Of a stretch of DNA of 59,709 nucleotides, positions 2,467-30,237 are shown in pieces. Made by a program: the position numbers and the translations under genes. Location of the stretch: IMG/VR virus record IMGVR_UViG_3300024999_000116, positions 1-59,709 of that record; one strand, given 5' to 3'. The notes below the pieces were generated by a model. That model worked only from the letters and a program-made list of their open reading frames with translations, was not told the origin of the DNA and ran no database searches. Source of the stretch: a virus. Taxonomy: Duplodnaviria; Caudoviricetes. How positions within the stretch are numbered: position 1 is the first letter of the stretch; each line of letters opens with the position of its first letter.

Positions 2467-2922
2467 ATGAAAACATGCTTAGACTGCGGAAATCCTATTA
2501 TCAATAGAGGCAGAGGTGCCGTTAGATGCTTAGAATGTGCCGAGAAGCGCGAAAAGAAAATGGCCATTCTGAGGGTGAATAGGCGAAAAGACAGGTTAGG
2601 AAAAGAGTTTTGCAGCGAAACAAGGAAATTTAAAAACAAAGCACATCTACTACAGGGTGATTCGTGTATTATATGTGGTTTTAATGTACCAAATATGCCT
2701 CATGGTGGTTGTGACGTGCATCATATCATACCGCTATCAAGTGGAGGTACGAACGATGAAGACAGAAATGCCGCCATACTTTGCCCGAACTGTCATGTAG
2801 AAGCACATCAAGGCATTATATCGGTAGAGAAATTACTTACTGGTGTGCTGAAAGCCAAAACAAAACGCATCAATTCAAAGATAGATGCTTCATTTATTGA
2901 TAGAGTGAGGGCGAGAGCATAA
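2467..2922 (+). CDS. HNH endonuclease
   Basis: CIICG..DVHHIIPLSSGGTND..AILCPNCHVEAH. Confidence 0.85.
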   Translation: MKTCLDCGNPIINRGRGAVRCLECAEKREKKMAILRVNRRKDRLGKEFCSETRKFKNKAHLLQGDSCIICGFNVPNMPHGGCDVHHIIPLSSGGTNDEDRNAAILCPNCHVEAHQGIISVEKLLTGVLKAKTKRINSKIDASFIDRVRARA

Positions 2923-3411
2923 GCTATGTACACGCTGTACCTATGGACGTTCTTATAATGTGCATTATGTCAACTAGATAAGGCCAAAAGTGCCGTATTT
3001 CCTGCATTTCTTAGTCAGGTGTTCGGTTACTGGTTCCGTTTTTGTCATTGTCCTGCTGTGGTGGACATTTTACCGTACCTGCTCCATTTCACAGGCGCAG
3101 GGTTGTGATACTGTGTTGTACGCACAGAGCGCAGCGCATACGCGAGCAGGGAGCGCAAGCGCACGTATTTAGATAGGATATTCGCCAAAAAGAGGGGGTG
3201 GGGGTCAAACACCCCCGGTATGGATTGGCGGGACTCCGGCGAAGGGTACCTGTACTTTATACTATCACCATCTAACAACATATACATTTTACACAATTTC
3301 ACAAAGTTTATAAATCACTATAATCCAAAAGGAAGTGATTATCGTACTATCAATAATTAAACGCTTCATCCATAACTATTGTCGTATCATACATAAACTA
3401 AATTAAAAGGA

Positions 3412-3687
3412 GTGTTTATTATGGGATTGACAGCAAGTCAAATGAAAATGTTGCAACTAATGGCTAAAAAGAATGATATGGCAGGTATTCAAAAAATGTT
3501 GGCAAGTGCTACACCGGCTAAAGCATCCAGCAAACCTGCGACACCTCAACAGCAGGCAGCAAATAAAAAACGTGAGGCTCAGATTAAAGCCATGGAGTCT
3601 GCGGCTAAAGCACAGAAAAAAGAAATTGCTGCGGTAGCTAAAAATATTAATAGTAAGGAAAAAATGTCTTTCAAAACTTTCGCATAA
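3412..3687 (+). CDS. Hypothetical basic Ala/Lys-rich protein
   Basis: AAGGAG RBS; followed by hairpin terminator aaacaacaaccgcc/ggtggttgttgttt. Confidence 0.5.
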   Translation: MFIMGLTASQMKMLQLMAKKNDMAGIQKMLASATPAKASSKPATPQQQAANKKREAQIKAMESAAKAQKKEIAAVAKNINSKEKMSFKTFA

Positions 3688-3782
3688 TGATGTAAACAAC
3701 AACCGCCATTTACCGACGGTGGTTGTTGTTTTTACACCAATATACATATTTATCTAACTATTAACCGAAAACGGAGGAAATA

Positions 3783-9901: not shown

Positions 9902-11023
9902 TTGATAAAAACTTACAAAGTTAGACTTGAACCGAATAAAGAGCAAGAACAAAAGATGTGGCAATCTGCCGGAACCGCTAGATGGGCGTATAACTGGACG
10001 TTGGGTGTACAACAAGAGAATCGCCAAAACGGCGGTAAGTTTATTCAAGACGGTGAGTTGCGTAAAAGTTTAACTAAGTTAAAGAAAACAGAAGAATTTT
10101 GTTGGCTTAAAAAATACTCTAATAATATTACAAAACAAGCAGTTAAGGATGCTTGCAAAGCATATAAATCATTTTTTAATGGCAATAGTAAATTTCCTAA
10201 ATTTAAGAGTAAAAAGAAAAGCAGGACATCATTCTATCAAGATACATCAAATATTAAAATTAATGAAACTCATGCAAGACTAGAAAAAATAGGATGGGTA
10301 AGGTTAAGCGAAACCAATAGAATACCGCAGGGAAGATACTTTAATCCAAGGGTTACGCATGATGGAATACATTGGTTTATATCTGTTGGCGTAGAGGAAT
10401 TTCCTGTATATCCCGAACTAACCAATGAAAGTATTGGTATTGATGTAGGAATTAAGAGTCTTGCTGTAGTCAGTAACGGAATGATATTTAAAAACATTAA
10501 TAAGTCAGGCAAGGTAAAAAAAATCAAAAAGCGTTTGCGTAGGTTGCAACGTAAATGCTCACGAAAATATTATAAAAATGGAAAGGGTGTAAGTTACGAA
10601 AAGACTAGTAACATTATAAAACTTGAAAAATCAATCTTAAAAATTCACCATAAACTAAAAGACATTAAAACTGATTATATCCATAAAACTACTTCCGAGA
10701 TAGTGAAAACCAAACCTTCAAGGGTAGTTATGGAGGATTTGAATATTACAGGAATGATGAAAAATAAGTATCTATCAAAAGCTATTCAGGAACAAAGTCT
10801 ATATGAATTTCACAGGCAAATGCAGTACAAATGCGAGTGGAACGGTATAGAGTTTGTTGTAGCAGATAGGTTTTTCCCATCATCAAAACTTTGTTCGGAG
10901 TGTGGATATATTCATAGGGAATTAAAATTATCTGATAGGACTTATATCTGTCCTGCTTGTGGTAACAAGATAGATAGGGATTATCAGGCAAGTTTAAACC
11001 TATCTAAATACGAATCAGCATAA
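9902..11023 (+). CDS. tnpB: TnpB RNA-guided endonuclease (IS200/IS605/IS607 superfamily)
   Basis: N-terminal HTH_OrfB; RuvC triad intact (GIDVG, VMEDL, DRDYQAS); CSECG/CPACG zinc finger. Confidence 0.93.
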   Translation: MIKTYKVRLEPNKEQEQKMWQSAGTARWAYNWTLGVQQENRQNGGKFIQDGELRKSLTKLKKTEEFCWLKKYSNNITKQAVKDACKAYKSFFNGNSKFPKFKSKKKSRTSFYQDTSNIKINETHARLEKIGWVRLSETNRIPQGRYFNPRVTHDGIHWFISVGVEEFPVYPELTNESIGIDVGIKSLAVVSNGMIFKNINKSGKVKKIKKRLRRLQRKCSRKYYKNGKGVSYEKTSNIIKLEKSILKIHHKLKDIKTDYIHKTTSEIVKTKPSRVVMEDLNITGMMKNKYLSKAIQEQSLYEFHRQMQYKCEWNGIEFVVADRFFPSSKLCSECGYIHRELKLSDRTYICPACGNKIDRDYQASLNLSKYESA

Positions 11024-13904: not shown

Positions 13905-14726
13905 ATGTTATCTAATTGCCCCGTATGTGGTAAAGAATTCAATGCAGTTGGAGCAGCTAAATATTGTTCCAAGGATTGCAGAATGATTGCTAAGATAAGC
14001 AGGGATGGTCGTCGCAAGACTGATATTTGCCCTAACTGTCTAAAAGAATTTATCGTTTCTAGTAACAGGCAGATATTCTGCTCTAAAGAGTGTTGGACTA
14101 TTGCGAACAGGGATAAAATAAGGGCAAAAACATATAAGGCAGTAATGAAGTATCACGATAAAAAATATTTTAACGGAAATAGGGAAATAGTCTTGGAAAG
14201 AGACGGTCATAAATGTATGAGGTGTGATTCTACTGAAAACATAGGGGTTCATCATATCGACAAGACGGGCAAGAAAGATAACCCTAATCATTCACTAGAC
14301 AACCTGATAACTTTATGTAATAACTGTCATTCGCAGGAACACGTTGAGGAAAAGAAGTTACCGCGAACCGCTTTTATGACTACATGCCAATACTGCGGTA
14401 ATCAGTTTAAAACTACCCCATATAAAATAAAAATAGGTGCAGGTAAATACTGCTCTAAGGAATGTAAGGATGCAGGCATGGTTACGCTGAAGGTTACAGA
14501 AGATTTACACCCAGCAGACAAACCCAATCATTTTATGGTTAGTTGCTGTAATTGCGGAACAAAGTTTTCAGTTCCTCCTAATAGGATTAAAAGAGGTACT
14601 GCACTTTACTGTAGTAGGTCGTGTAGAACTGTAGTTGAAAATAGTAAAAGGGCAGGTAAATACAAAATAAGTAATACTGAAAATATGGGCAAGGGTAGAA
14701 AAATAAATAAACAAGCAACAAACTAG
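13905..14726 (+). CDS. HNH endonuclease with multiple Zn-finger repeats
   Basis: VLERDGHKCMRC..GVHHID..NHSLDNLITLCNNCH; repeated CxxCG..YCSKEC. Confidence 0.85.
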   Translation: MLSNCPVCGKEFNAVGAAKYCSKDCRMIAKISRDGRRKTDICPNCLKEFIVSSNRQIFCSKECWTIANRDKIRAKTYKAVMKYHDKKYFNGNREIVLERDGHKCMRCDSTENIGVHHIDKTGKKDNPNHSLDNLITLCNNCHSQEHVEEKKLPRTAFMTTCQYCGNQFKTTPYKIKIGAGKYCSKECKDAGMVTLKVTEDLHPADKPNHFMVSCCNCGTKFSVPPNRIKRGTALYCSRSCRTVVENSKRAGKYKISNTENMGKGRKINKQATN

Positions 14727-18171: not shown

Positions 18172-19017
18172 ATGAAATTATCTTCATTATGGTCTATGTA
18201 TAAAAAAGATAAGGCAATTGCTGGATACTCAACTCATACACTAAAAGCATATGAACTACAATTCAAGTTGCTCATAAATCATATTGGAGAAGTCGATATT
18301 GATAGCATTGCTTGTGCTCAATTAAAAGACTATTTATATGCAAATATCCACCTTAAGCCTGCTAGTTTGGGGCATAGGGTAAGATTTATGAGGTCATTTT
18401 TTAAATGGGCAAATAGCGAGGGTTATTCTACTAATAATCCGGCGGAAAAAATAAAAGAACCAAAGGTTAAGGATAAAACTCCTAAATATTTATCGGATGA
18501 AGAAGTATCTAAACTTATTAATTCATGCGAAACTCCATTAGAAGAGACAATATTATGGTTTCTATACTCTACCGGTTGTAGAATCGGCGAAATATCAAAA
18601 ATAGATAAATGCGATATAAATTGGGATAATAACTCTATAATAGTTGCAGGAAAGGGAGGTAAGTCGAGGACTGTTTATTTTGATGATAAATGCAAAGACA
18701 TATTAAGTAAATATCTTAATTCCAGAAATGACACAGAACGAGCATTAATATCAACAGAAAGAGTGCCGCATAGAATGAGTGTTGCTCAAATAAGGTGTAT
18801 ATTAAAAAGAATATCTTTACGGTCAGGCATAACTAATAATATATATCCCCACAAACTAAGACACTCATACGCAACACATTTACTTAATAACGGTGCTCCG
18901 ATAGAAGCAATTAGAGAGTTGCTAGGTCATTGCAATATTGATAGCACATTAATTTATGCTAGACTAACGGAGCAGGGCAAGAAGAATATTTACAATAAAT
19001 GCTTTAATAACCACTAA
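18172..19017 (+). CDS. Tyrosine recombinase (XerD-like)
   Basis: TGCRIGE, GKGGK, HKLRH, LLGH, TLIY: complete catalytic set; no arm-binding domain. Confidence 0.92.
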   Translation: MKLSSLWSMYKKDKAIAGYSTHTLKAYELQFKLLINHIGEVDIDSIACAQLKDYLYANIHLKPASLGHRVRFMRSFFKWANSEGYSTNNPAEKIKEPKVKDKTPKYLSDEEVSKLINSCETPLEETILWFLYSTGCRIGEISKIDKCDINWDNNSIIVAGKGGKSRTVYFDDKCKDILSKYLNSRNDTERALISTERVPHRMSVAQIRCILKRISLRSGITNNIYPHKLRHSYATHLLNNGAPIEAIRELLGHCNIDSTLIYARLTEQGKKNIYNKCFNNH

Positions 19018-23181: not shown

Positions 23182-24594
23182 ATGGCTCAACAATGGATTC
23201 GCAATTTATTCCCTAACGCACAGTGGAACGCACAGGACAGAACAATCGGTTTGCCGGGAGGCGTAACTCTCCGAGAGGGACAAGGGTTTACTATCGGAGC
23301 AGACAACAAAGCTATGGTAGACGGTCCTAATTCGCTTGTCAGTCCCTATCTAAGCGCACCTAAAGCACAAGTAGACCCTACAAAGTTTGGTCAATACTAT
23401 GGCATGGGAGAGCAGTTATATGGTGGTTTGCGTGATGCAAGGCTAAATTCCCTACAAACTGAAACTGGTAATAAGCGCACTCAGTTGGGATTAAATTATA
23501 AAGATTCGATGGATACAACCAGGGAGAATGAAGGTAAGTCCCTCATGGGTCTTTCTGCAAGTATCGCAAATCGAGGCATGGGTAGTAGTGGTGTAGCAAA
23601 TTATCAAAGAAAACAGATGCAAGGCGAGTACGATAAGAAGTATGACTTTATCGGCAAAAACAGGGACGAACAAATGGCCGGTTTAGCCAGCTCAGAACTT
23701 GCAGCACAGAAGGAACTCGATGCACAGTTACAGAATCAGTCGTTTCTGTATGCTCAGGGACTAATGGACAGGGACTTAAATTCTGAGCAACAGACACGGA
23801 ATAATATGGTTAATTATCTACAGGGATTAGCTGAACGTGGGGATAGTTTAGATCAACAACAATGGCAGAGGGGCGTTACTGAGGCCGGATTGACGGGTAA
23901 TTACAACGGACAAAATACAATATCGGCACGTAGCGTACTTGCAGGATTAAGCGGCATTGACCCGACGACAAAGCAATACACTTTAACAGGTAGAAGTACC
24001 TTGTCCGGCATAACCGGAGTAGACCCGGCGACAGGACAGGCGACATATGATGCTAGAAATGCCGACAGGGAGTATGCGTTACGGAGAGACTTGAATAATG
24101 CACAAGTAAGAGGTAGTACCGCAGGAGAGAGACAAAACGCCGCTACTGCTGACCTACTTAATAAGGCGGTTGGTCGATACAAAGAGAATATGCAAAAAAG
24201 CTTGAAGTATCCCGGTTATTATACAGTTAGTTCTTTGTTGAGCGATCCTGAGTGGATGGTTGCGGCGAAGAAGTCAGGCGCAAATAGTAAGGATGCTATT
24301 GATATGTTACTGACATCTATTGGGACAACTCCTGCTGAATTCTTCACTGGGGAAACTGCTAAGTTATTGCCGCTATATAATCAATTGGGCGGCGGTGCAT
24401 CAATCAAGGAAGATAAGGAACAGGTAAGAAATAATGCTTTAGGAAGTGCATATCAAACAATAGATAACGCATACCAACAAGGAATGTCACCAGCAGAAAT
24501 CAAGCAAATGGTTCGTTCCGATGCTGCAAGTTTGGCTCAATATGGAATTAAGGTTCAAGATGTTTTGGATTACGTTGATAATTATAATTACTAG
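23182..24594 (+). CDS. Putative internal virion/ejection protein
   Basis: Helical, Q/G-rich; ANRGMGSSG and EAGLTGNYNG motifs; podovirus position. Confidence 0.55.
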   Translation: MAQQWIRNLFPNAQWNAQDRTIGLPGGVTLREGQGFTIGADNKAMVDGPNSLVSPYLSAPKAQVDPTKFGQYYGMGEQLYGGLRDARLNSLQTETGNKRTQLGLNYKDSMDTTRENEGKSLMGLSASIANRGMGSSGVANYQRKQMQGEYDKKYDFIGKNRDEQMAGLASSELAAQKELDAQLQNQSFLYAQGLMDRDLNSEQQTRNNMVNYLQGLAERGDSLDQQQWQRGVTEAGLTGNYNGQNTISARSVLAGLSGIDPTTKQYTLTGRSTLSGITGVDPATGQATYDARNADREYALRRDLNNAQVRGSTAGERQNAATADLLNKAVGRYKENMQKSLKYPGYYTVSSLLSDPEWMVAAKKSGANSKDAIDMLLTSIGTTPAEFFTGETAKLLPLYNQLGGGASIKEDKEQVRNNALGSAYQTIDNAYQQGMSPAEIKQMVRSDAASLAQYGIKVQDVLDYVDNYNY

Positions 24595-24607
24595 GTGGGG
24601 TGATTAG

Positions 24608-27600
24608 ATGGGTTTTTTTGGAGATTTAGGCGGTAGTAAAAAAGCCAGCAATTCACCTTCCGCAACAAGGTCAAGTAGAGGATTTTTTGATTTTGACGAG
24701 AACGGAAACATTGCAGGACAGGGGCTGGCAGCAATGCCAGTCGCCCCAAAATCTCCTGCAGTTAATAATGATATGGGAAAAAGTGCATATTTTAGACTAG
24801 ATGAAAAATTAGGTGGACGCTTACCTTTTGGTTCGGAAGGACCCTCTTTATCGGATGTTGGTAAAGATATTATAAATCTTCCTAGTATAATAAATAATGC
24901 AGGTAGACAAGCAATGACATTTGGCCAATATAATAAATTCGAGGATTGGCTTGACGAAAAACTAGGTAACACAGGCGCAACGAAAGAAATGAGAGAAAAA
25001 CAAGAACCTAAGTCTTTAGTTGGTGACTTAGGGAATTTAGTCGGTTTTGTTTCCGGTTCAACAATTCCCATTGGTGGCATTGGAAAATTGGTTGATAGGG
25101 GATTAAGACTTGCTCCTGCTACATCAACATTGGGAAAATTGGGCCAAGCGGCATTAAAAAGCGGAACGGCAGGAGGCATTTATGGTGGTACAGAAGCAAC
25201 GCTAAATGGCGAATCTTTGCCTGACATAGCCAAGTTAGCGGCGACAGATGCCGCTATATTTGCAGGTGGTGACGTTGCTCTAAGAGGTGCAGGACAACTA
25301 ATAAGCAAGCTAAGAAAAACGCCGCCACCTGTTGCTGCTCCCAACACGGCAGAATCATTTAGAGAAAAAGTTAGTCGTGATACTGAAAAAAAAGGTACCT
25401 TCTCTGAAAAGGTAGATAAGTTTAATACTCAGTTTATAGACGATTTAGCACCCGCCGAAAAGGTTGAGAAGAATGTTAGGGGCAAGTTGTCTAGTGCAGA
25501 AAATAGCCTTTATAAAACAGCAAGACTATTTAGAGGATCACCTACCAGAGCAAATAATATTATACAGAAGCAACTGAAACCTACAATTGAGAGTATTGAA
25601 AGCCAAGGATTTACTACTTCTGACTTGGGCGACTACGCTTTGGCACATCACGCAAAAGACGTTAATGCCGCAGGAATTAAGTCTGGATTTACGGATGATG
25701 AAATTAATGCAGTTATAACCAAATACGGAACTCCAGAAATGGAGGCGGCGAGACAGGAGTTACTTAAATATAACGACATACTGTTAGACGAACTAGCTAC
25801 AACAGGTGTTATTGATGCAACATTGCCAGCAACACTAAAGGCTAAATGGTCAAACTATATGCCCCTTTTTAGAAGTTTTGACGATAATAAAGTTGACTTT
25901 ACTAATGGTCTAGGAAGTTCACTTGTAAATGCTACTTCGCCAATTAAAAGTTTAAAGGGTTCCAGTAGAAAAGTTATCGACCCATTAGAATCATTAATTA
26001 AAAACACATACCAAAGTATCAATGCCGCAGAGAGAAATAAGGTATCCCTACAAGTAGCAAAACTGGCACTTGATGATACTACCGGAACATTCGTTAAAAG
26101 ATTAGCACCTGGGGCAAATAAAGATAGACTTAATACTGTCTATCTTTTAGAAAACGGTAAAAAGATTTTTTTCGAGGTACAACCTGACGTTTATAAAGCA
26201 CTGAAGTCTCTTGATAAAGAGAGTAGTAACTTTTTAGTTCGACTATTACAGAAACCTGCATCATTATTAAGGGCAGGTGCTACTCTGACACCTGAGTTTA
26301 GTTTTAGAAACCCTGTGCGTGATGTTGTTTCAGCGTTCGTTACTTCTAAATCAGGATTTAACCCTATAACTGATTTTCCGGTTGCTTTTTTTGAGGCACT
26401 AACCAAGGGTAAGGGTATTAATGTTAAAGGAGTTGGAATTGTTAAGCCAAAAGGACTATATGATAATTTTTTAGCCGATAATGGCGGTTATGGCAACATA
26501 CTTTCTATGGATAGAAAACTGCAACAACAGGCACTAAAGGAAATTAGTAAAGGGACGATTAAGGACAAATTCGTCGATATTGCAAGTGGAAAGTCTCTAA
26601 TAAAAGTGCTTAGGGGAATTGCCGATACCACAGAAACAGCAACTAAATTAGGCGAGTATAGGGCGGCACTCAGAAGTGTGGTAAGTAGACCTGAGGCGGC
26701 GTATAGAGCGAGAGACGTTATGGACTTCTCTCGTGCCGGAAGTTCTGTTCGTGAGGCTAATAAAATTGTTGCTTTTCTAAATGCAAACATTCAAGGTAAG
26801 TCGAAACTTATTAGAGCGTTCAAGGAAAATCCAACTGGTTTTACTGCTAAAGCGATAACTTCTATCTCATTGCCAACTGTCGGAGTCTATTTGATGCAGA
26901 AAAATATGGCTAACGATAAGCAGAAGGAATTAATCGCAGATGCCCCCAACTGGCTTAAAAGTAGTTTTTGGCTAATGCCTATACCTGGAACCGATCAGGT
27001 AGCAAGGATACCTAAACCGTTTGACCTAGCACCTGTTTTTGCTAACTCAGTTGAACGGATGATGAAATATGTTGAGGATAACGATCCGGATGCTTTTGAT
27101 GGATATATCAGGGAAACATTCGGAACAATGTCTATACCAACCATGATTACCGGCATAATACCGTTAATTGAGGGTATGGCAAACTATTCATTCTTCCGTC
27201 AAGGACCAATTATACCGCAACGAGAACAGTTTATTAATTTCTCAGACCAGTACGATACTAACACCTCCGAGGTAGCAAAAAAAATAGGAAAAGAAATAGA
27301 CAGTGTGACGGGTGGCGAAGGTACGTTTAAAAACTTCGGTTCCCCACGTATTATTGATAACACTATTCGCGGACTTACTGCTGGACTTGGTTCGCTTGCT
27401 ACCGGCGCAATGGATCAGATACTAGAAAGTACAGGAATGGTTGACGAAAAAAACAAACCAACCAGAAAACCGAGCGAGTTGCCGATAGTTAAAGCATTAT
27501 TGGTTAGCGATACAGGAAGTGGTCAGTCAATGACAGACTTATATAAGTTAAGAGATAAACTTATGCGAGAAAAAGGTTCTGCTGAAATAGGGAAAAACTC

Positions 27601-27799
27601 TTTTAAAGGCAAGGCAGAATTAAGGTTTGTAACGAAGGCAACGGACGATATAGGAAAAATTACTAAGATTATGCGACAAGTTGAAAACAACCCCAAAATC
27701 AATAGTGACATTAAGCGAAAGAGGTTGGACGAATTGAATAAGCGGAGAAATACTATAGCATCAAGTGTAATGGAACGCATTAATTCGGCTAAAAAATAA
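24608..27799 (+). CDS. Large ejection/polyvalent protein with C-terminal LPD38-like domain
   Basis: RNPVRD, DFSRAG..AFLNANIQG, FWLMPIP..RIPKPFDL, NYSFFRQGPIIP. Confidence 0.7.
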   Translation: MGFFGDLGGSKKASNSPSATRSSRGFFDFDENGNIAGQGLAAMPVAPKSPAVNNDMGKSAYFRLDEKLGGRLPFGSEGPSLSDVGKDIINLPSIINNAGRQAMTFGQYNKFEDWLDEKLGNTGATKEMREKQEPKSLVGDLGNLVGFVSGSTIPIGGIGKLVDRGLRLAPATSTLGKLGQAALKSGTAGGIYGGTEATLNGESLPDIAKLAATDAAIFAGGDVALRGAGQLISKLRKTPPPVAAPNTAESFREKVSRDTEKKGTFSEKVDKFNTQFIDDLAPAEKVEKNVRGKLSSAENSLYKTARLFRGSPTRANNIIQKQLKPTIESIESQGFTTSDLGDYALAHHAKDVNAAGIKSGFTDDEINAVITKYGTPEMEAARQELLKYNDILLDELATTGVIDATLPATLKAKWSNYMPLFRSFDDNKVDFTNGLGSSLVNATSPIKSLKGSSRKVIDPLESLIKNTYQSINAAERNKVSLQVAKLALDDTTGTFVKRLAPGANKDRLNTVYLLENGKKIFFEVQPDVYKALKSLDKESSNFLVRLLQKPASLLRAGATLTPEFSFRNPVRDVVSAFVTSKSGFNPITDFPVAFFEALTKGKGINVKGVGIVKPKGLYDNFLADNGGYGNILSMDRKLQQQALKEISKGTIKDKFVDIASGKSLIKVLRGIADTTETATKLGEYRAALRSVVSRPEAAYRARDVMDFSRAGSSVREANKIVAFLNANIQGKSKLIRAFKENPTGFTAKAITSISLPTVGVYLMQKNMANDKQKELIADAPNWLKSSFWLMPIPGTDQVARIPKPFDLAPVFANSVERMMKYVEDNDPDAFDGYIRETFGTMSIPTMITGIIPLIEGMANYSFFRQGPIIPQREQFINFSDQYDTNTSEVAKKIGKEIDSVTGGEGTFKNFGSPRIIDNTIRGLTAGLGSLATGAMDQILESTGMVDEKNKPTRKPSELPIVKALLVSDTGSGQSMTDLYKLRDKLMREKGSAEIGKNSFKGKAELRFVTKATDDIGKITKIMRQVENNPKINSDIKRKRLDELNKRRNTIASSVMERINSAKK

Positions 27800-27809
27800 A
27801 GGGAACCAC

Positions 27810-28019
27810 TTAGTAGGGTGGTTCCTCATCCTCTTTTAAAAGTATACATTTAGGTGGATGGTTTGCCCACCAATAACCGCCATAACCAACCGAACCAAGG
27901 ACAAATAATAACCATAGCGGTTTGTCGGGGATTACGATAAAAGCCACCATACTACCAAAGCACATTGTAAAAATTGTGTAGATAAATGCCCAACGTAGAA
28001 TTTTAATCATCAATAACAT
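27810..28019 (-). CDS. Small two-TM membrane protein
   Basis: Hydrophobic; GGAGG RBS; co-oriented with the Xre gene. Confidence 0.5.
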   Translation of the reverse strand: MLLMIKILRWAFIYTIFTMCFGSMVAFIVIPDKPLWLLFVLGSVGYGGYWWANHPPKCILLKEDEEPPY

Positions 28020-28029
28020 TCAACCTCCC

Positions 28030-28233
28030 TTAATTTTTATCAACAAACTCCAATATTTCTCCTGGGTTACATTCTAATGCAAAGCATAGACGCTCTATAA
28101 CTTCCAGGGAAACATATTGATTTGTGTTTAATTTGGCCATAGTACCGCCAGATATTTTAGCTTGTTTCATTATATCTTGTTTCTTTATATTTCTATCAAT
28201 CAGTATTTTTTGAAATAGTTTATAACTAACCAT
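28030..28233 (-). CDS. Xre/Cro-C1 HTH regulator (HTH_26-like)
   Basis: MVSYKLFQKILIDR..VSLEVIERLCFALECNPGEILEF. Confidence 0.85.
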   Translation of the reverse strand: MVSYKLFQKILIDRNIKKQDIMKQAKISGGTMAKLNTNQYVSLEVIERLCFALECNPGEILEFVDKN

Positions 28234-28322
28234 TGTGAATGTACCTCCTAAAACATATTATTCTATCTTATATATTTATATTAGTATATCAAAAAATATT
28301 TGACAAAACAAATATAATTTCA

Positions 28323-28350
28323 TTGACTTGTAAATTCAATATGTTATAAT
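28323..28350 (+). promoter_or_regulatory. sigma-A promoter of the RAMP-HNH-array operon
   Basis: TTGACT-16-TATAAT with extended TG. Confidence 0.6.
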
Positions 28351-28390
28351 AATATATAAGATGTTATAGATTGTATATAGGAGGTTGGGC

Positions 28391-29023
28391 ATGGGCAAAA
28401 ACATTTTAACGGCAACAATCGAAATAAAAGGAATTAGACCTCTGTTATGGCATGTATTTGGTCCTGATTCTCTGCCGCTTGAAAAACAGGAGAGGACAGG
28501 AGTTGCCGGACACGATCCGGAGGAATGGCGCAAAACTTATGTAGCAACCAAGAGTGGACAACTATATTTGCCTGGTTCTTATTTTTTCGGAACCTATATT
28601 GCAGGTGCTAAGTTTATTAAGAAGGGTAAGGGTTCAATTCAAAGCATGGTATCAGCAACATTGCAGGTACTCGATGATAAGGTTTTGATTAACAGACACC
28701 TACCGGAAGATATTCACGAAAAACCGCATAAGTATTACAATGCTGACGAAGAATTGGTTTATATTGACGTTCGCTCAGTACGTAATCCGTCAACCAAGGC
28801 AAGAAACATTCGTTATCGCGTTGCAACTTGTCATGGATGGGAATGTAAATTTTCGATAATGTTTGACAAGACGGTTGTTAGTCGCCAGGAAATGCACGCA
28901 GCCATTATTGATGCAGGTAAGTTATCCGGCATTGGTGATGGTCGCTCTGTGGGATACGGAAGGTTTGAAGTGTTATCTTTTGAAATACAGGAGGAAGATA
29001 ATGCCAAGGAAAAGACCTCCTAA
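28391..29023 (+). CDS. Stand-alone Cas7/RAMP-superfamily protein (Vipr-like)
   Basis: ATG 28391 after GGAGG. First strand ATIEIKGIRPLL, LYLPGSYFFG (cf. RAMP YIPGSSxKG), and C-terminal Gly-rich loop GIGDGRSVGYGRFEV. Confidence 0.8.
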   Translation: MGKNILTATIEIKGIRPLLWHVFGPDSLPLEKQERTGVAGHDPEEWRKTYVATKSGQLYLPGSYFFGTYIAGAKFIKKGKGSIQSMVSATLQVLDDKVLINRHLPEDIHEKPHKYYNADEELVYIDVRSVRNPSTKARNIRYRVATCHGWECKFSIMFDKTVVSRQEMHAAIIDAGKLSGIGDGRSVGYGRFEVLSFEIQEEDNAKEKTS

Positions 29024-29291
29024 AGAAATATGGCAAAAGTTAAGGATAATAGTCTGGAATCGTGACGGAGGTAAATGTAAACACTGTCACGAACCAGTTG
29101 ACTTAAATAAATGTCACATAGATCATATTCGTTCTGGTAAACTAGGAACCAATAAACTAAACAATCTTAGAACTCTATGTCGTTGCTGTCATGTTTTGCG
29201 TGATGATGGGCGGCATAGGGGGATGATTAGTAAAGCACTTAAGGATGGTATTATTCCTCCGAATTGGCGGGAGTTAGTTTGGGGTGATTAA
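29001..29291 (+). CDS. HNH endonuclease translationally coupled to the RAMP gene
   Basis: ATG 29001 after AGGAGG; RDGGKCKHC..HIDHI..GTNKLNNLRTLCRCCH. Confidence 0.85.
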   Translation: MPRKRPPKEIWQKLRIIVWNRDGGKCKHCHEPVDLNKCHIDHIRSGKLGTNKLNNLRTLCRCCHVLRDDGRHRGMISKALKDGIIPPNWRELVWGD

Positions 29292-29300
29292 TATATATGC

Positions 29301-29395
29301 GGCGGGGACTGATTTGGAGTGGAGAGATATGTTTAGGTGTGGTGAGTTGGGGACCGGCGTGGTGCGGTTAGGTAGGGCGAGGTAAGATAGGACGA
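29301..29395 (+). repeat. Phased pentamer array 1 (19 units, G(G)H-NN): putative guide RNA
   Basis: ggcgg ggact gattt ggagt ggaga gatat gttta ggtgt ggtga gttgg ggacc ggcgt ggtgc ggtta ggtag ggcga ggtaa gatag gacga; 19/19 start with G, 13/19 with GG. Confidence 0.85.
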
Positions 29396-29397
29396 TA

Positions 29398-29462
29398 TTA
29401 TTGAAACAGGGGTAAAACCCTGTTCGCAGGAGGTGACTGTCCTGCGCTGATGAGATAAGTTA
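29398..29462 (+). ncRNA. Type II hammerhead ribozyme
   Basis: GAAA 29403-06; stem III ACAGGG/CCCUGU; GUU cleavage triplet 29422-24; stem I CGCAGGA/UCCUGCG; CUGAUGA 29447-53; open stem II UUAUU/GAUAA. Confidence 0.85.
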
Positions 29463-29472
29463 AATAATACGA

Positions 29473-29557
29473 GTTTTGGAGTGGAGGGGTCGGGTCCGGA
29501 ATGGAGTGTCCCGGCGGGGATAGGTATGGTGAGGCGGGGTATGTCTAGGCGAGGGTA
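29473..29557 (+). repeat. Phased pentamer array 2 (17 units, G(G)H-NN): putative guide RNA
   Basis: gtttt ggagt ggagg ggtcg ggtcc ggaat ggagt gtccc ggcgg ggata ggtat ggtga ggcgg ggtat gtcta ggcga gggta; 17/17 start with G, 14/17 with GG. Confidence 0.85.
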
Positions 29558-29560
29558 ATA

Positions 29561-29596
29561 AAAAATAACCACATCTTAATCGATGTGGTTATTTTT
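29561..29596. terminator. Bidirectional intrinsic terminator
   Basis: aaaaataaccacatc-ttaatc-gatgtggttattttt, a perfect 15-bp inverted repeat. Confidence 0.85.
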
Positions 29597-29801
29597 CGTC
29601 CGACACGTATTCTAGTAAGTCGCCTGGGTGACATTTAAGGGCAGTACAAATTCTATCTATTACCGACACGTCAATTCTGGTGATGTTTCCGTTATACATT
29701 GCATACAGAGTATTCTTATTAACTCCGCTTAACTCGTGTAGTTTAGGAACTTTCATTCTATCTCTGTCGAACATAATTTTGTCTAAATTAAATTTTATCA
29801 A
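29589..29801 (-). CDS. Xre/Cro-C1 HTH regulator (HTH_26-like)
   Basis: TTG 29801 after GGAGGTG; IKFNLDKIM..RIDVSVIDRICTALKCHPGDLLEY. Confidence 0.85.
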   Translation of the reverse strand: MIKFNLDKIMFDRDRMKVPKLHELSGVNKNTLYAMYNGNITRIDVSVIDRICTALKCHPGDLLEYVSDEK

Positions 29802-29883
29802 CTTCGATACACCTCCATGAAGTATATTATACAACGATGCACAAATAAAAGCAACTGAATTTGATATTTTATACACATAAGTA

Positions 29884-29912
29884 TTGACATTAAAGGTCGT
29901 ATATTATACAAT
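29884..29912 (+). promoter_or_regulatory. sigma-A promoter
   Basis: TTGACA-17-TACAAT. Confidence 0.65.
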
Positions 29913-29952
29913 AAAGTCAATAGAATTAACATAAATACAGGGAGGCAGAGAT

Positions 29953-30237
29953 ATGGAAAAAAGTTTCAAAGAATGTTTTGCGGAGTTATGCTCTGACCGG
30001 GCGAGTGATGCAATCGTATCGGCACGACAGAAGGATGCTGAGTATGTCGAGGCGATGGACAGGTTAAACGATATTCGCAATAAATTAATCCCACTATTGA
30101 GCGATGGTAACGAATTCCTACTTAATCAGTTACTTGATGCTTATACTCGTAGGCAGGTTTGCGAAACTCGTTTAGCCTATGAACAGGGTATGCGTGATGG
30201 ATTGCGGTTGAATAAGATAGTGGGAGGGGTAGCATGA
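29953..30237 (+). CDS. Small helical protein
   Basis: GGGAGG RBS; AYEQGMRDGL motif common next to Xre/antirepressor genes. Confidence 0.55.
   Translation: MEKSFKECFAELCSDRASDAIVSARQKDAEYVEAMDRLNDIRNKLIPLLSDGNEFLLNQLLDAYTRRQVCETRLAYEQGMRDGLRLNKIVGGVA

Follow-up and report, generated by a model that had tools for sequence, protein, structure and literature searches.

A phage-borne VIPR locus with a hammerhead-separated second guide array that very probably matches an LPD38 gene of rival phages

The stretch of DNA analysed here (the window) is the whole of the IMG/VR virus record IMGVR_UViG_3300024999_000116 (Duplodnaviria, Caudoviricetes), a linear record of 59,709 nucleotides estimated by CheckV to be 84% complete. 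Its gene content includes terminase, portal, major head, tail, endolysin/lysis, and replication genes. Searches of the phage collection with blastn and tblastn found no similar phage record. Additional genes are present within the structural region. Between the genes for portal and head, a 373-aa open reading frame (ORF; 9902-11023, plus strand) matches phrog_506, labelled 'transposase', with an E-value of 1.7e-116, and possibly represents an insertion sequence or TnpB-like gene lodged among the structural genes. A second HNH endonuclease gene, larger than the one described below, lies beside the major head gene (13905-14726, plus strand), and a tyrosine-integrase-like gene (18172-19017, plus strand) is located among the structural genes, with a homolog on the opposite strand in the phage record G003.

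The locus under study consists of a promoter candidate, a vipr gene encoding a RAMP protein, a small HNH gene, two tracts of tandem pentamers (arrays 1 and 2) separated by a hammerhead ribozyme, and a terminator-like hairpin (Table 1). The promoter candidate agrees with the consensus at 11 of 12 positions and is one of the two best candidates in 28000-30000, a ranking based on consensus match alone. Read from a TTG start, the vipr product has 212 aa; an ATG at 28391 agrees better with the N-termini of its relatives. The HNH gene overlaps the 3' end of vipr by 23 nt. The hairpin appears in the MFE and centroid folds alike, and abuts the end of a converging HTH gene on the minus strand (29589-29876); a simple terminator scan found no terminators and did not flag it.

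Table 1. Features of the vipr locus, in window coordinates
Feature	Position	Strand	Description
Sigma-70-like promoter candidate	28323-28350	+	TTGACT, 16 nt, TATAAT, with TG before it; upstream of vipr
vipr gene, RAMP protein	28385-29023	+	212 aa from TTG start
Predicted accessory (vap) gene, zinc-finger HNH nuclease	29001-29291	+	96 aa; Pfam HNH
vrRNA 1 repeat tract (array 1)	29301-29395	+	19 pentamers, G first
Type II hammerhead ribozyme	29399-29464	+	Between arrays 1 and 2; RF02276
vrRNA 2 repeat tract (array 2)	29473-29557	+	17 head-to-tail pentamers, G always first
vrRNA 2 units 1-12	29473-29532	+	Guide part matching the natural target
vrRNA 2 units 13-17	29533-29557	+	Trailing units; units 16-17 carry the GGCGA-GG end motif
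Terminator-like hairpin	29562-29596	+	14-bp stem, 6-nt loop, then a T run; closes the locus

VIPR systems were first described in April 2026 (10.64898/2026.04.26.720920). In the available part of that account, they are phage-borne and consist of a minimal RAMP protein (Vipr), an accessory vap gene, and guide RNAs (vrRNAs) of 9-16 YNNGG units (10.64898/2026.04.26.720920). The tandem GGY/NN units number at least 4 and typically 9-16, with 'a related consensus' allowed, and the NN pairs alone pair with DNA, one target base being skipped per unit, mostly at the codon third place (10.64898/2026.04.26.720920). The targets are competing mobile elements, identified with an 80% match cut-off, and self-targeting is absent (10.64898/2026.04.26.720920). 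Seven types are distinguished, in which hammerhead-interspersed arrays belong to types I and V (fig. S19 legend), nuclease or helicase vap genes belong to types III-V, and the nuclease-bearing types are linked to host defence islands (10.64898/2026.04.26.720920). As given in the accessible portion of a companion report, the Vipr of Escherichia phage SUSP1 places one protomer on each unit, with the GGY bases flipped out and the NN bases paired with the target strand; the GGY bases are held by H17, D177, R138, W178, and R179, with W178 stacking on G2 (10.64898/2026.04.26.720927). Codon-periodic targeting is described as blocking mutational escape in a later report, the available text of which contains no occurrence of hammerhead, HNH, nuclease, or LPD (10.64898/2026.10.15.759431).

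The 212-aa Vipr of the window matches phrog_4652 (E 4e-14) and, weakly, the Pfam family Cas6_C (E 0.028), and 1290 homologs were found in the protein collection at E<=0.001. A family profile of 26 homologs searched against the PDB identified one solved structure, 36pp_D, the 'SUSP1 Vipr protein' (E 7.9e-9), in a match that spans profile positions 8-193 and hence 186 of 201 positions. The AlphaFold2 model (pLDDT 79) finds its best PDB folds among the Csm3/Cas7 RAMPs (E 2.9e-9, TM 0.55), which form the backbone of CRISPR complexes of types III and VII. In the alignment, the G-loop GDWR of SUSP1 corresponds to GDGR, where glycine takes the place of W178 and both D177 and R179 are retained. By sequence and profile comparison, the vipr product is classed as a minimal RAMP homologous to the described Vipr; it differs from SUSP1 Vipr in this glycine and in that the homology, at the profile E-value given above, is distant.

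The HNH protein scores 24.2 bits against the Pfam HNH family (E 3.7e-5), for which the cut-off is 21.4. Related loci (n=92) were collected from viral contigs (L002-L043) and from bacterial or metagenome-assembled (MAG) contigs (L061-L110) representing many phyla, and 84 of the 92 carry an HNH homolog downstream of vipr on the same strand. Eight residues are invariant among 22 HNH sequences, namely C26, C29, D41, H42, N51, C60, C63, and H64. A predicted Vipr-HNH complex received a score of 0.62 compared with 0.57 for one control, and was not used in either direction. By its recurrence downstream of vipr, the gene is classed as an accessory vap gene adjoining vipr. The corresponding accessory gene of SUSP1, in contrast, is the DNA-binding vap1. 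The HTH genes around the locus are a separate matter: the converging gene noted above and a gene at 28030-28233 (minus strand) are HTH_26 Cro/C1-type paralogs, 35% identical, that lie on the opposite strand to either side of the VIPR module. They were considered as VIPR parts and rejected because HTH homologs near vipr are restricted to L002 and L003, with weak matches in L008 and L020, and are therefore not core parts.

The hammerhead aligns with RF02276 over its full length (positions 1-66) with a score of 35.8 bits (E 7.9e-6 over 341 bases), which falls 1.2 bits below the Rfam gathering score of 37; the equivalent element of L002, at 36.3 bits, is also below it. An alignment of 16 sequences from seven sources provides compensatory changes in 11 of 13 stem pairs and displays invariant GAAAC and CUGA-N-GA cores; the GU-H cut site is present as well. 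The element thus shares with type II hammerheads of RF02276 both cores, the site, covarying stems I and III, and an open stem II, and differs from them in its slightly lower score and in its job here, the separation of guide RNAs. The cut site is GUU at 29422-29424, with cleavage predicted between 29424 and 29425. Hammerheads also separate or precede arrays in six related loci (L002, L011, L065, L069, L088, and L104). In one of these, the Marinithermofilum abyssi contig L065, seven hammerheads follow one another in a row at 2870-3711, spaced 120-146 nt apart; a pentamer tract comes after each of them, and several of the tracts are near-duplicates.

Of the 17 units of array 2, 14 begin with GG and three with GT. 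The third base is T in six units, C in five, A in five, and G in one, and thus a pyrimidine in 11 of 17. The presence of A and G at this place, which sets the tract apart from the SUSP1 arrays, means that the tract departs from the strict SUSP1 GGY rule and follows a relaxed consensus. No other part of the window resembles the two arrays in length: the longest run of G-first pentamers outside these tracts has 8 units, compared with 17 and 19 in the arrays, and the longest run in 100 letter shuffles of the window averaged 7.06 with a maximum of 9. Array 2 was missed by Tandem Repeats Finder, as expected, because only two to three of its five positions repeat. The NN list recorded in the first-pass annotation, TT GT GG CG CC AT GT CC GG TA AT GA GG AT TA GA TA, was confirmed, and its description of array 2 as a second guide differing from array 1, with NN pairs that read in a codon-like register, is supported.

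Pentamer arrays are a common feature of the related loci. An array of at least 8 units lies on the vipr strand in 66 of the 92, and the relatives together provide 102 distinct arrays, whose median length is 13 units. Pyrimidines account for 82% of third bases in these arrays, A for 15%, and G for 2.5%, and each of the 16 possible NN pairs occurs. The closest relative, L002 (87% amino acid identity), has the same layout with unrelated NN pairs. Comparing the arrays of relatives, as suggested at first pass for related phages, separated a kept GG scaffold from variable NN pairs, and the scaffold is, on these alignments, conserved among relatives while the NN pairs are hypervariable, as described for VIPR. 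The remark that neither array uses CA or TG as an NN pair is true of both tracts. It does not amount to a rule, since the relatives use CA at 4.2% and TG at 4.3%.

Short motifs shared by the ends of arrays 1 and 2 had been proposed as loading handles. Both motifs had been placed correctly, with TTGGAGTGGAG starting at 29314 and 29476 and GGCGAGG at 29376 and 29548, and the proposal fares differently at the two ends. At the 3' end, the second- and third-last units of the relatives' arrays have the form GGCRA in 28% of cases, compared with 8% for inner units. Units 16-17 of array 2 (GGCGA, GGGTA) fit this 3' end motif, which is semi-conserved in the clade, and the 3' GGCGAGG is consistent with a constant end or handle. 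At the 5' end, the 12-nt TTGGAGTGGAG is private to this phage, with no occurrence in the 92 related loci, and its units in array 2 match the target described below at five of six bases. Absent from the relatives and located within the pairing region of array 2, it is not a conserved handle; its presence in both arrays hints at a common origin of the two.

Identification of a target relied on reading each NN pair followed by one free (skipped) base, the gapped search that the first-pass annotation had proposed. An exact pattern of units 4-12, consisting of 18 fixed bases, was scanned against the viral_contigs collection and found five loci, all at one site of one gene, while the mirrored (backwards) pattern of the same units found none. 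The match extends upstream of the seed in the viral targets: units 1 and 3-12 match in full and unit 2 at one base, giving 23 of 24 bases. A scan of the metagenome collection with the 12-unit pattern added seven loci, all at 23 of 24, so that the gapped search succeeded for array 2 in both collections. The 12-unit pattern had no match in the bacterial genomes of genome_contigs, and units 8-16 had no exact match in viral_contigs. The trailing units 13-17 agree with the five viral targets at 4 of 10 bases; unit 13 also matches in three loci (L054-L056), giving 25 of 26, and these units are otherwise unmatched. Over all 17 units the agreement is 25-28 of 34 bases (74-82%), around the published 80% cut-off, compared with 96% for units 1-12. 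The 12 target loci represent one gene family and hence do not count as 12 independent matches.

Controls distinguish this match from background. In G003, a complete target record of 64.9 kb, the best score is 23 of 24, followed by 17 for the next best site and 16 for the mirrored guide. Among 200 shuffled guides the highest score was 18, and none attained 23 of 24. A comparison of 82 guides with all DNA in the analysis at a threshold of at least 19 of 20 bases passed only the array 2-target pairs and one further pair (L106-L041), and mirrored controls passed none.

The target match is in frame, with the free base at the codon third place, and encodes the peptide FAGRPIVPGYME. Among the targets, third codon bases vary in 9 of the 12 codons and the NN bases are fixed. 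The match is retained even in the variant represented by L057 and L059, the protein of which is only 40% identical to the others. The codon reading suggested at first pass, [FL]-V-G-R-P-[IM]-V-P-G-Y-[IM]-[DE], fits 11 of 12 places of the target motif F-A-G-R-P-I-V-P-G-Y-M-E; its continuation into units 13-17 has no counterpart in the targets, except for unit 13 in the three loci noted above. By these comparisons, units 1-12 have a natural target under the 1-nt skip rule, with an NN match above the published 80%, and the first 12-13 units of array 2 appear to be aimed at a conserved motif in the LPD38 gene of rival phages.

The product of the target gene is a large protein that contains an LPD38 domain (PF18857, phrog_9854). 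The window has its own homolog, 23% identical, in the ORF at 24608-27799, which ends approximately 600 bases upstream of vipr. At the corresponding site the phage's own gene reads FFRQGPIIPQRE and scores 9-11 of 24. A search of the window with the units 4-15 pattern found no match at up to three mismatches, and the best array 2 score anywhere in the window is 15 of 24, compared with 17 for the mirrored control. As judged from these scores, array 2 would not target the contig from which it comes. G003 is a distant, largely collinear relative of the window; of the 95 window ORFs that are 90 aa or longer, 10 have matches in it, at 23-55% identity. None of the five viral target records carries a vipr homolog, and two of these records are at least 97% complete. 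Two target contigs are titled 'fermentation metagenome', and the sequencing runs that contain the window are labelled groundwater; a search for RNA runs covering 28300-29700 returned none. The target gene is present twice in the 82-kb contig SPLK01000035.1, at 23674-26708 (L057) and 64638-67672 (L059), approximately 41 kb apart and with identical results; the paired copies may come from a concatemer assembly or a duplicated phage.

Similar searches with array 1 lead to a different outcome. Units 5-13 and units 3-11 had no match in viral_contigs, and units 6-14 had one (L111), which agrees at 18 of 24 bases and contains in-frame stop codons. Units 5-13 found seven matches in genome_contigs, the best at 22 of 24, and four of the five that were checked lie in open frames of 32-89 aa. 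By our own estimate, approximately 17 chance matches are expected for 18 fixed bases in 596 billion bases, and the seven are therefore treated as chance. Array 1 matched neither the five viral target records nor the window. On this evidence, array 1 has no convincing target in the collections searched.

Array 2 is very probably the repeat tract of a VIPR guide RNA (vrRNA 2) that is carried by a tailed phage and matches the LPD38 gene of its rivals, a reading drawn from sequence comparison. The locus is a real further example of the known VIPR kind and does not represent a new kind of system. The gapped, codon-register guide envisaged at first pass is the published '1-nt skip rule', and the idea is hence correct yet no longer new.

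The locus has much in common with type II VIPR, known from Escherichia phage SUSP1 and a Pseudomonas fulva prophage. The shared features are a phage-borne vipr RAMP with an accessory gene, tandem 5-nt units of fixed GG and variable NN of which approximately 12 are in use, and NN pairs with one skipped base at codon third places, directed at a competing element and not at the carrier. The differences, in addition to those of Vipr, the third base, and the accessory gene, are the separation of the vrRNAs by a hammerhead ribozyme and perhaps the form of the 3' end, where the SUSP1 clade has a pseudoknot after the repeats and this locus has trailing GGCRA-type units and a terminator-like hairpin. 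The arrangement is closer to that of hammerhead-interspersed VIPR loci, with which it shares a hammerhead between adjacent vrRNAs, an inferred cut site, and a predicted nuclease accessory gene. While the available description links nuclease-bearing types to host defence islands, this locus is located in a phage genome and its guide is directed against another phage. The Cas7/Csm3 proteins of class 1 CRISPR systems provide a more remote comparison. They have the RAMP fold, a glycine-rich loop, and one protomer per short RNA segment; in contrast to their 6-nt segments with one base flipped, the repeat here is 5 nt with three bases hidden and the guide is noncontiguous, and no repeat-spacer array or other cas gene adjoins the locus. 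CRISPR-Cas was rejected as an assignment, the single RAMP being the only Cas-like protein nearby and Tandem Repeats Finder detecting no array with a 25-40 nt period in the window. A TRAP-like protein-binding triplet repeat was considered and dropped given the RAMP neighbour and the VIPR papers.

Two alternatives to this reading concern the guide itself. The tract could be no guide at all and instead a G-rich simple repeat (a microsatellite or G-quadruplex) or part of a 79-aa minus-strand ORF (29333-29572). Such an ORF does cover the region, and GG every 5 nt could, in principle, stack into G-quadruplexes. A reading frame, however, cannot maintain a 5-nt period, and the ORF runs across the hammerhead and both arrays; moreover, like tracts with variable NN pairs adjoin vipr homologs in the 66 loci counted above, and the NN pairs of array 2 have a specific gapped target. 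We give this alternative almost no credence. A stronger contender accepts array 2 as a VIPR vrRNA and holds that its real target is something other than the LPD38 site, either lying elsewhere or using all 17 units in a phage yet to be sequenced. The poor agreement of units 13-17, the difference in named habitat between the window and two target contigs, and the origin of every target locus in one gene family are all compatible with this, as is the tendency of an exact 18-base seed to favour conserved coding motifs. Against it, the match continues past the seed, at five of six bases in units 1-3, and persists in a 40%-identical homolog with changed wobble bases. The empty mirrored and shuffled controls also argue against it, as does the published SUSP1 structure, in which 12 protomers span a 12-unit vrRNA. 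A target other than LPD38 is thus improbable, and array 2 as a guide matched to LPD38 remains the preferred reading.

The mechanism by which such a guide would act can be proposed largely by analogy with SUSP1. One transcript from the promoter-like site would span vipr, the HNH gene, and both tracts. The ribozyme would then cut at 29424|29425 and free vrRNA 2, which would retain the 3' portion of the ribozyme as a 5' leader predicted to be approximately 48 nt long (29425-29472) and to comprise stem I and the core. vrRNA 1 is predicted to keep a 3' tail made of the ribozyme 5' part and ending in stem III. Each pentamer would be bound by one Vipr protomer, with the GGY bases hidden and the NN bases presented. 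The resulting filament would base-pair with the rival gene's template strand and skip the codon third base, and hence, as proposed from SUSP1, synonymous changes would give the rival no escape. With less support, the bound complex might either block transcription or recruit the co-conserved HNH to cut the rival DNA.

The last step separates the two views of what the locus does to its target. In the simpler one, the complex would act by silencing only, as for type II VIPR, and the small HNH would be an unguided enzyme such as a homing or packaging-linked nuclease. Silencing alone has been demonstrated experimentally, for SUSP1, and small HNH genes are common in phages, with a second one in this very genome. 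On the other side, a homolog of this HNH comes immediately after vipr, in the same orientation, in the 84 loci from many phyla, and the gene here overlaps the vipr end; the catalytic and zinc-binding residues are invariant, and the preprint, in its available part, lists for some types vap genes that encode nucleases (10.64898/2026.04.26.720920). Silencing alone is a real possibility, if short of probable. The more elaborate view is of a nuclease-armed, phage-borne VIPR, in which a hammerhead-released guide and a Vipr filament would bring an obligate 96-aa HNH to cut the rival LPD38 gene, reading would be limited to the first 12-13 of the 17 units, and the GGCRA-type units at the trailing end would act as a 3' cap replacing the SUSP1 pseudoknot. 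This composite is put forward tentatively and, as a whole, is rather unlikely. If true, it would describe a very small RNA-guided DNA-cutting module, made of a 212-aa and a 96-aa protein with a wobble-tolerant code, and a nuclease-armed clade with the 1290 homologs of the protein collection spread across many phyla.

The preferred reading of array 2, as a VIPR guide matched to the LPD38 gene of rivals, has value apart from the question of cleavage. It would provide a clean natural case of noncontiguous VIPR coding in a clade other than the two studied experimentally. The predicted target, a 12-codon LPD38 motif, is specific and testable, and is matched despite wobble changes and in a protein of 40% identity. 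The locus also documents a widespread module of vipr and a small HNH gene with ribozyme-separated guides.

The other guide pair that passed the comparison of 82 guides comes from the relatives of this locus. A guide at approximately 1894 in L106, beside a Parachlamydiales vipr homolog, matches L041 at approximately 5280 (minus strand) in at least 19 of 20 NN bases. L041 is a viral contig with a VIPR locus of its own, and the match may represent cross-targeting between VIPR carriers.
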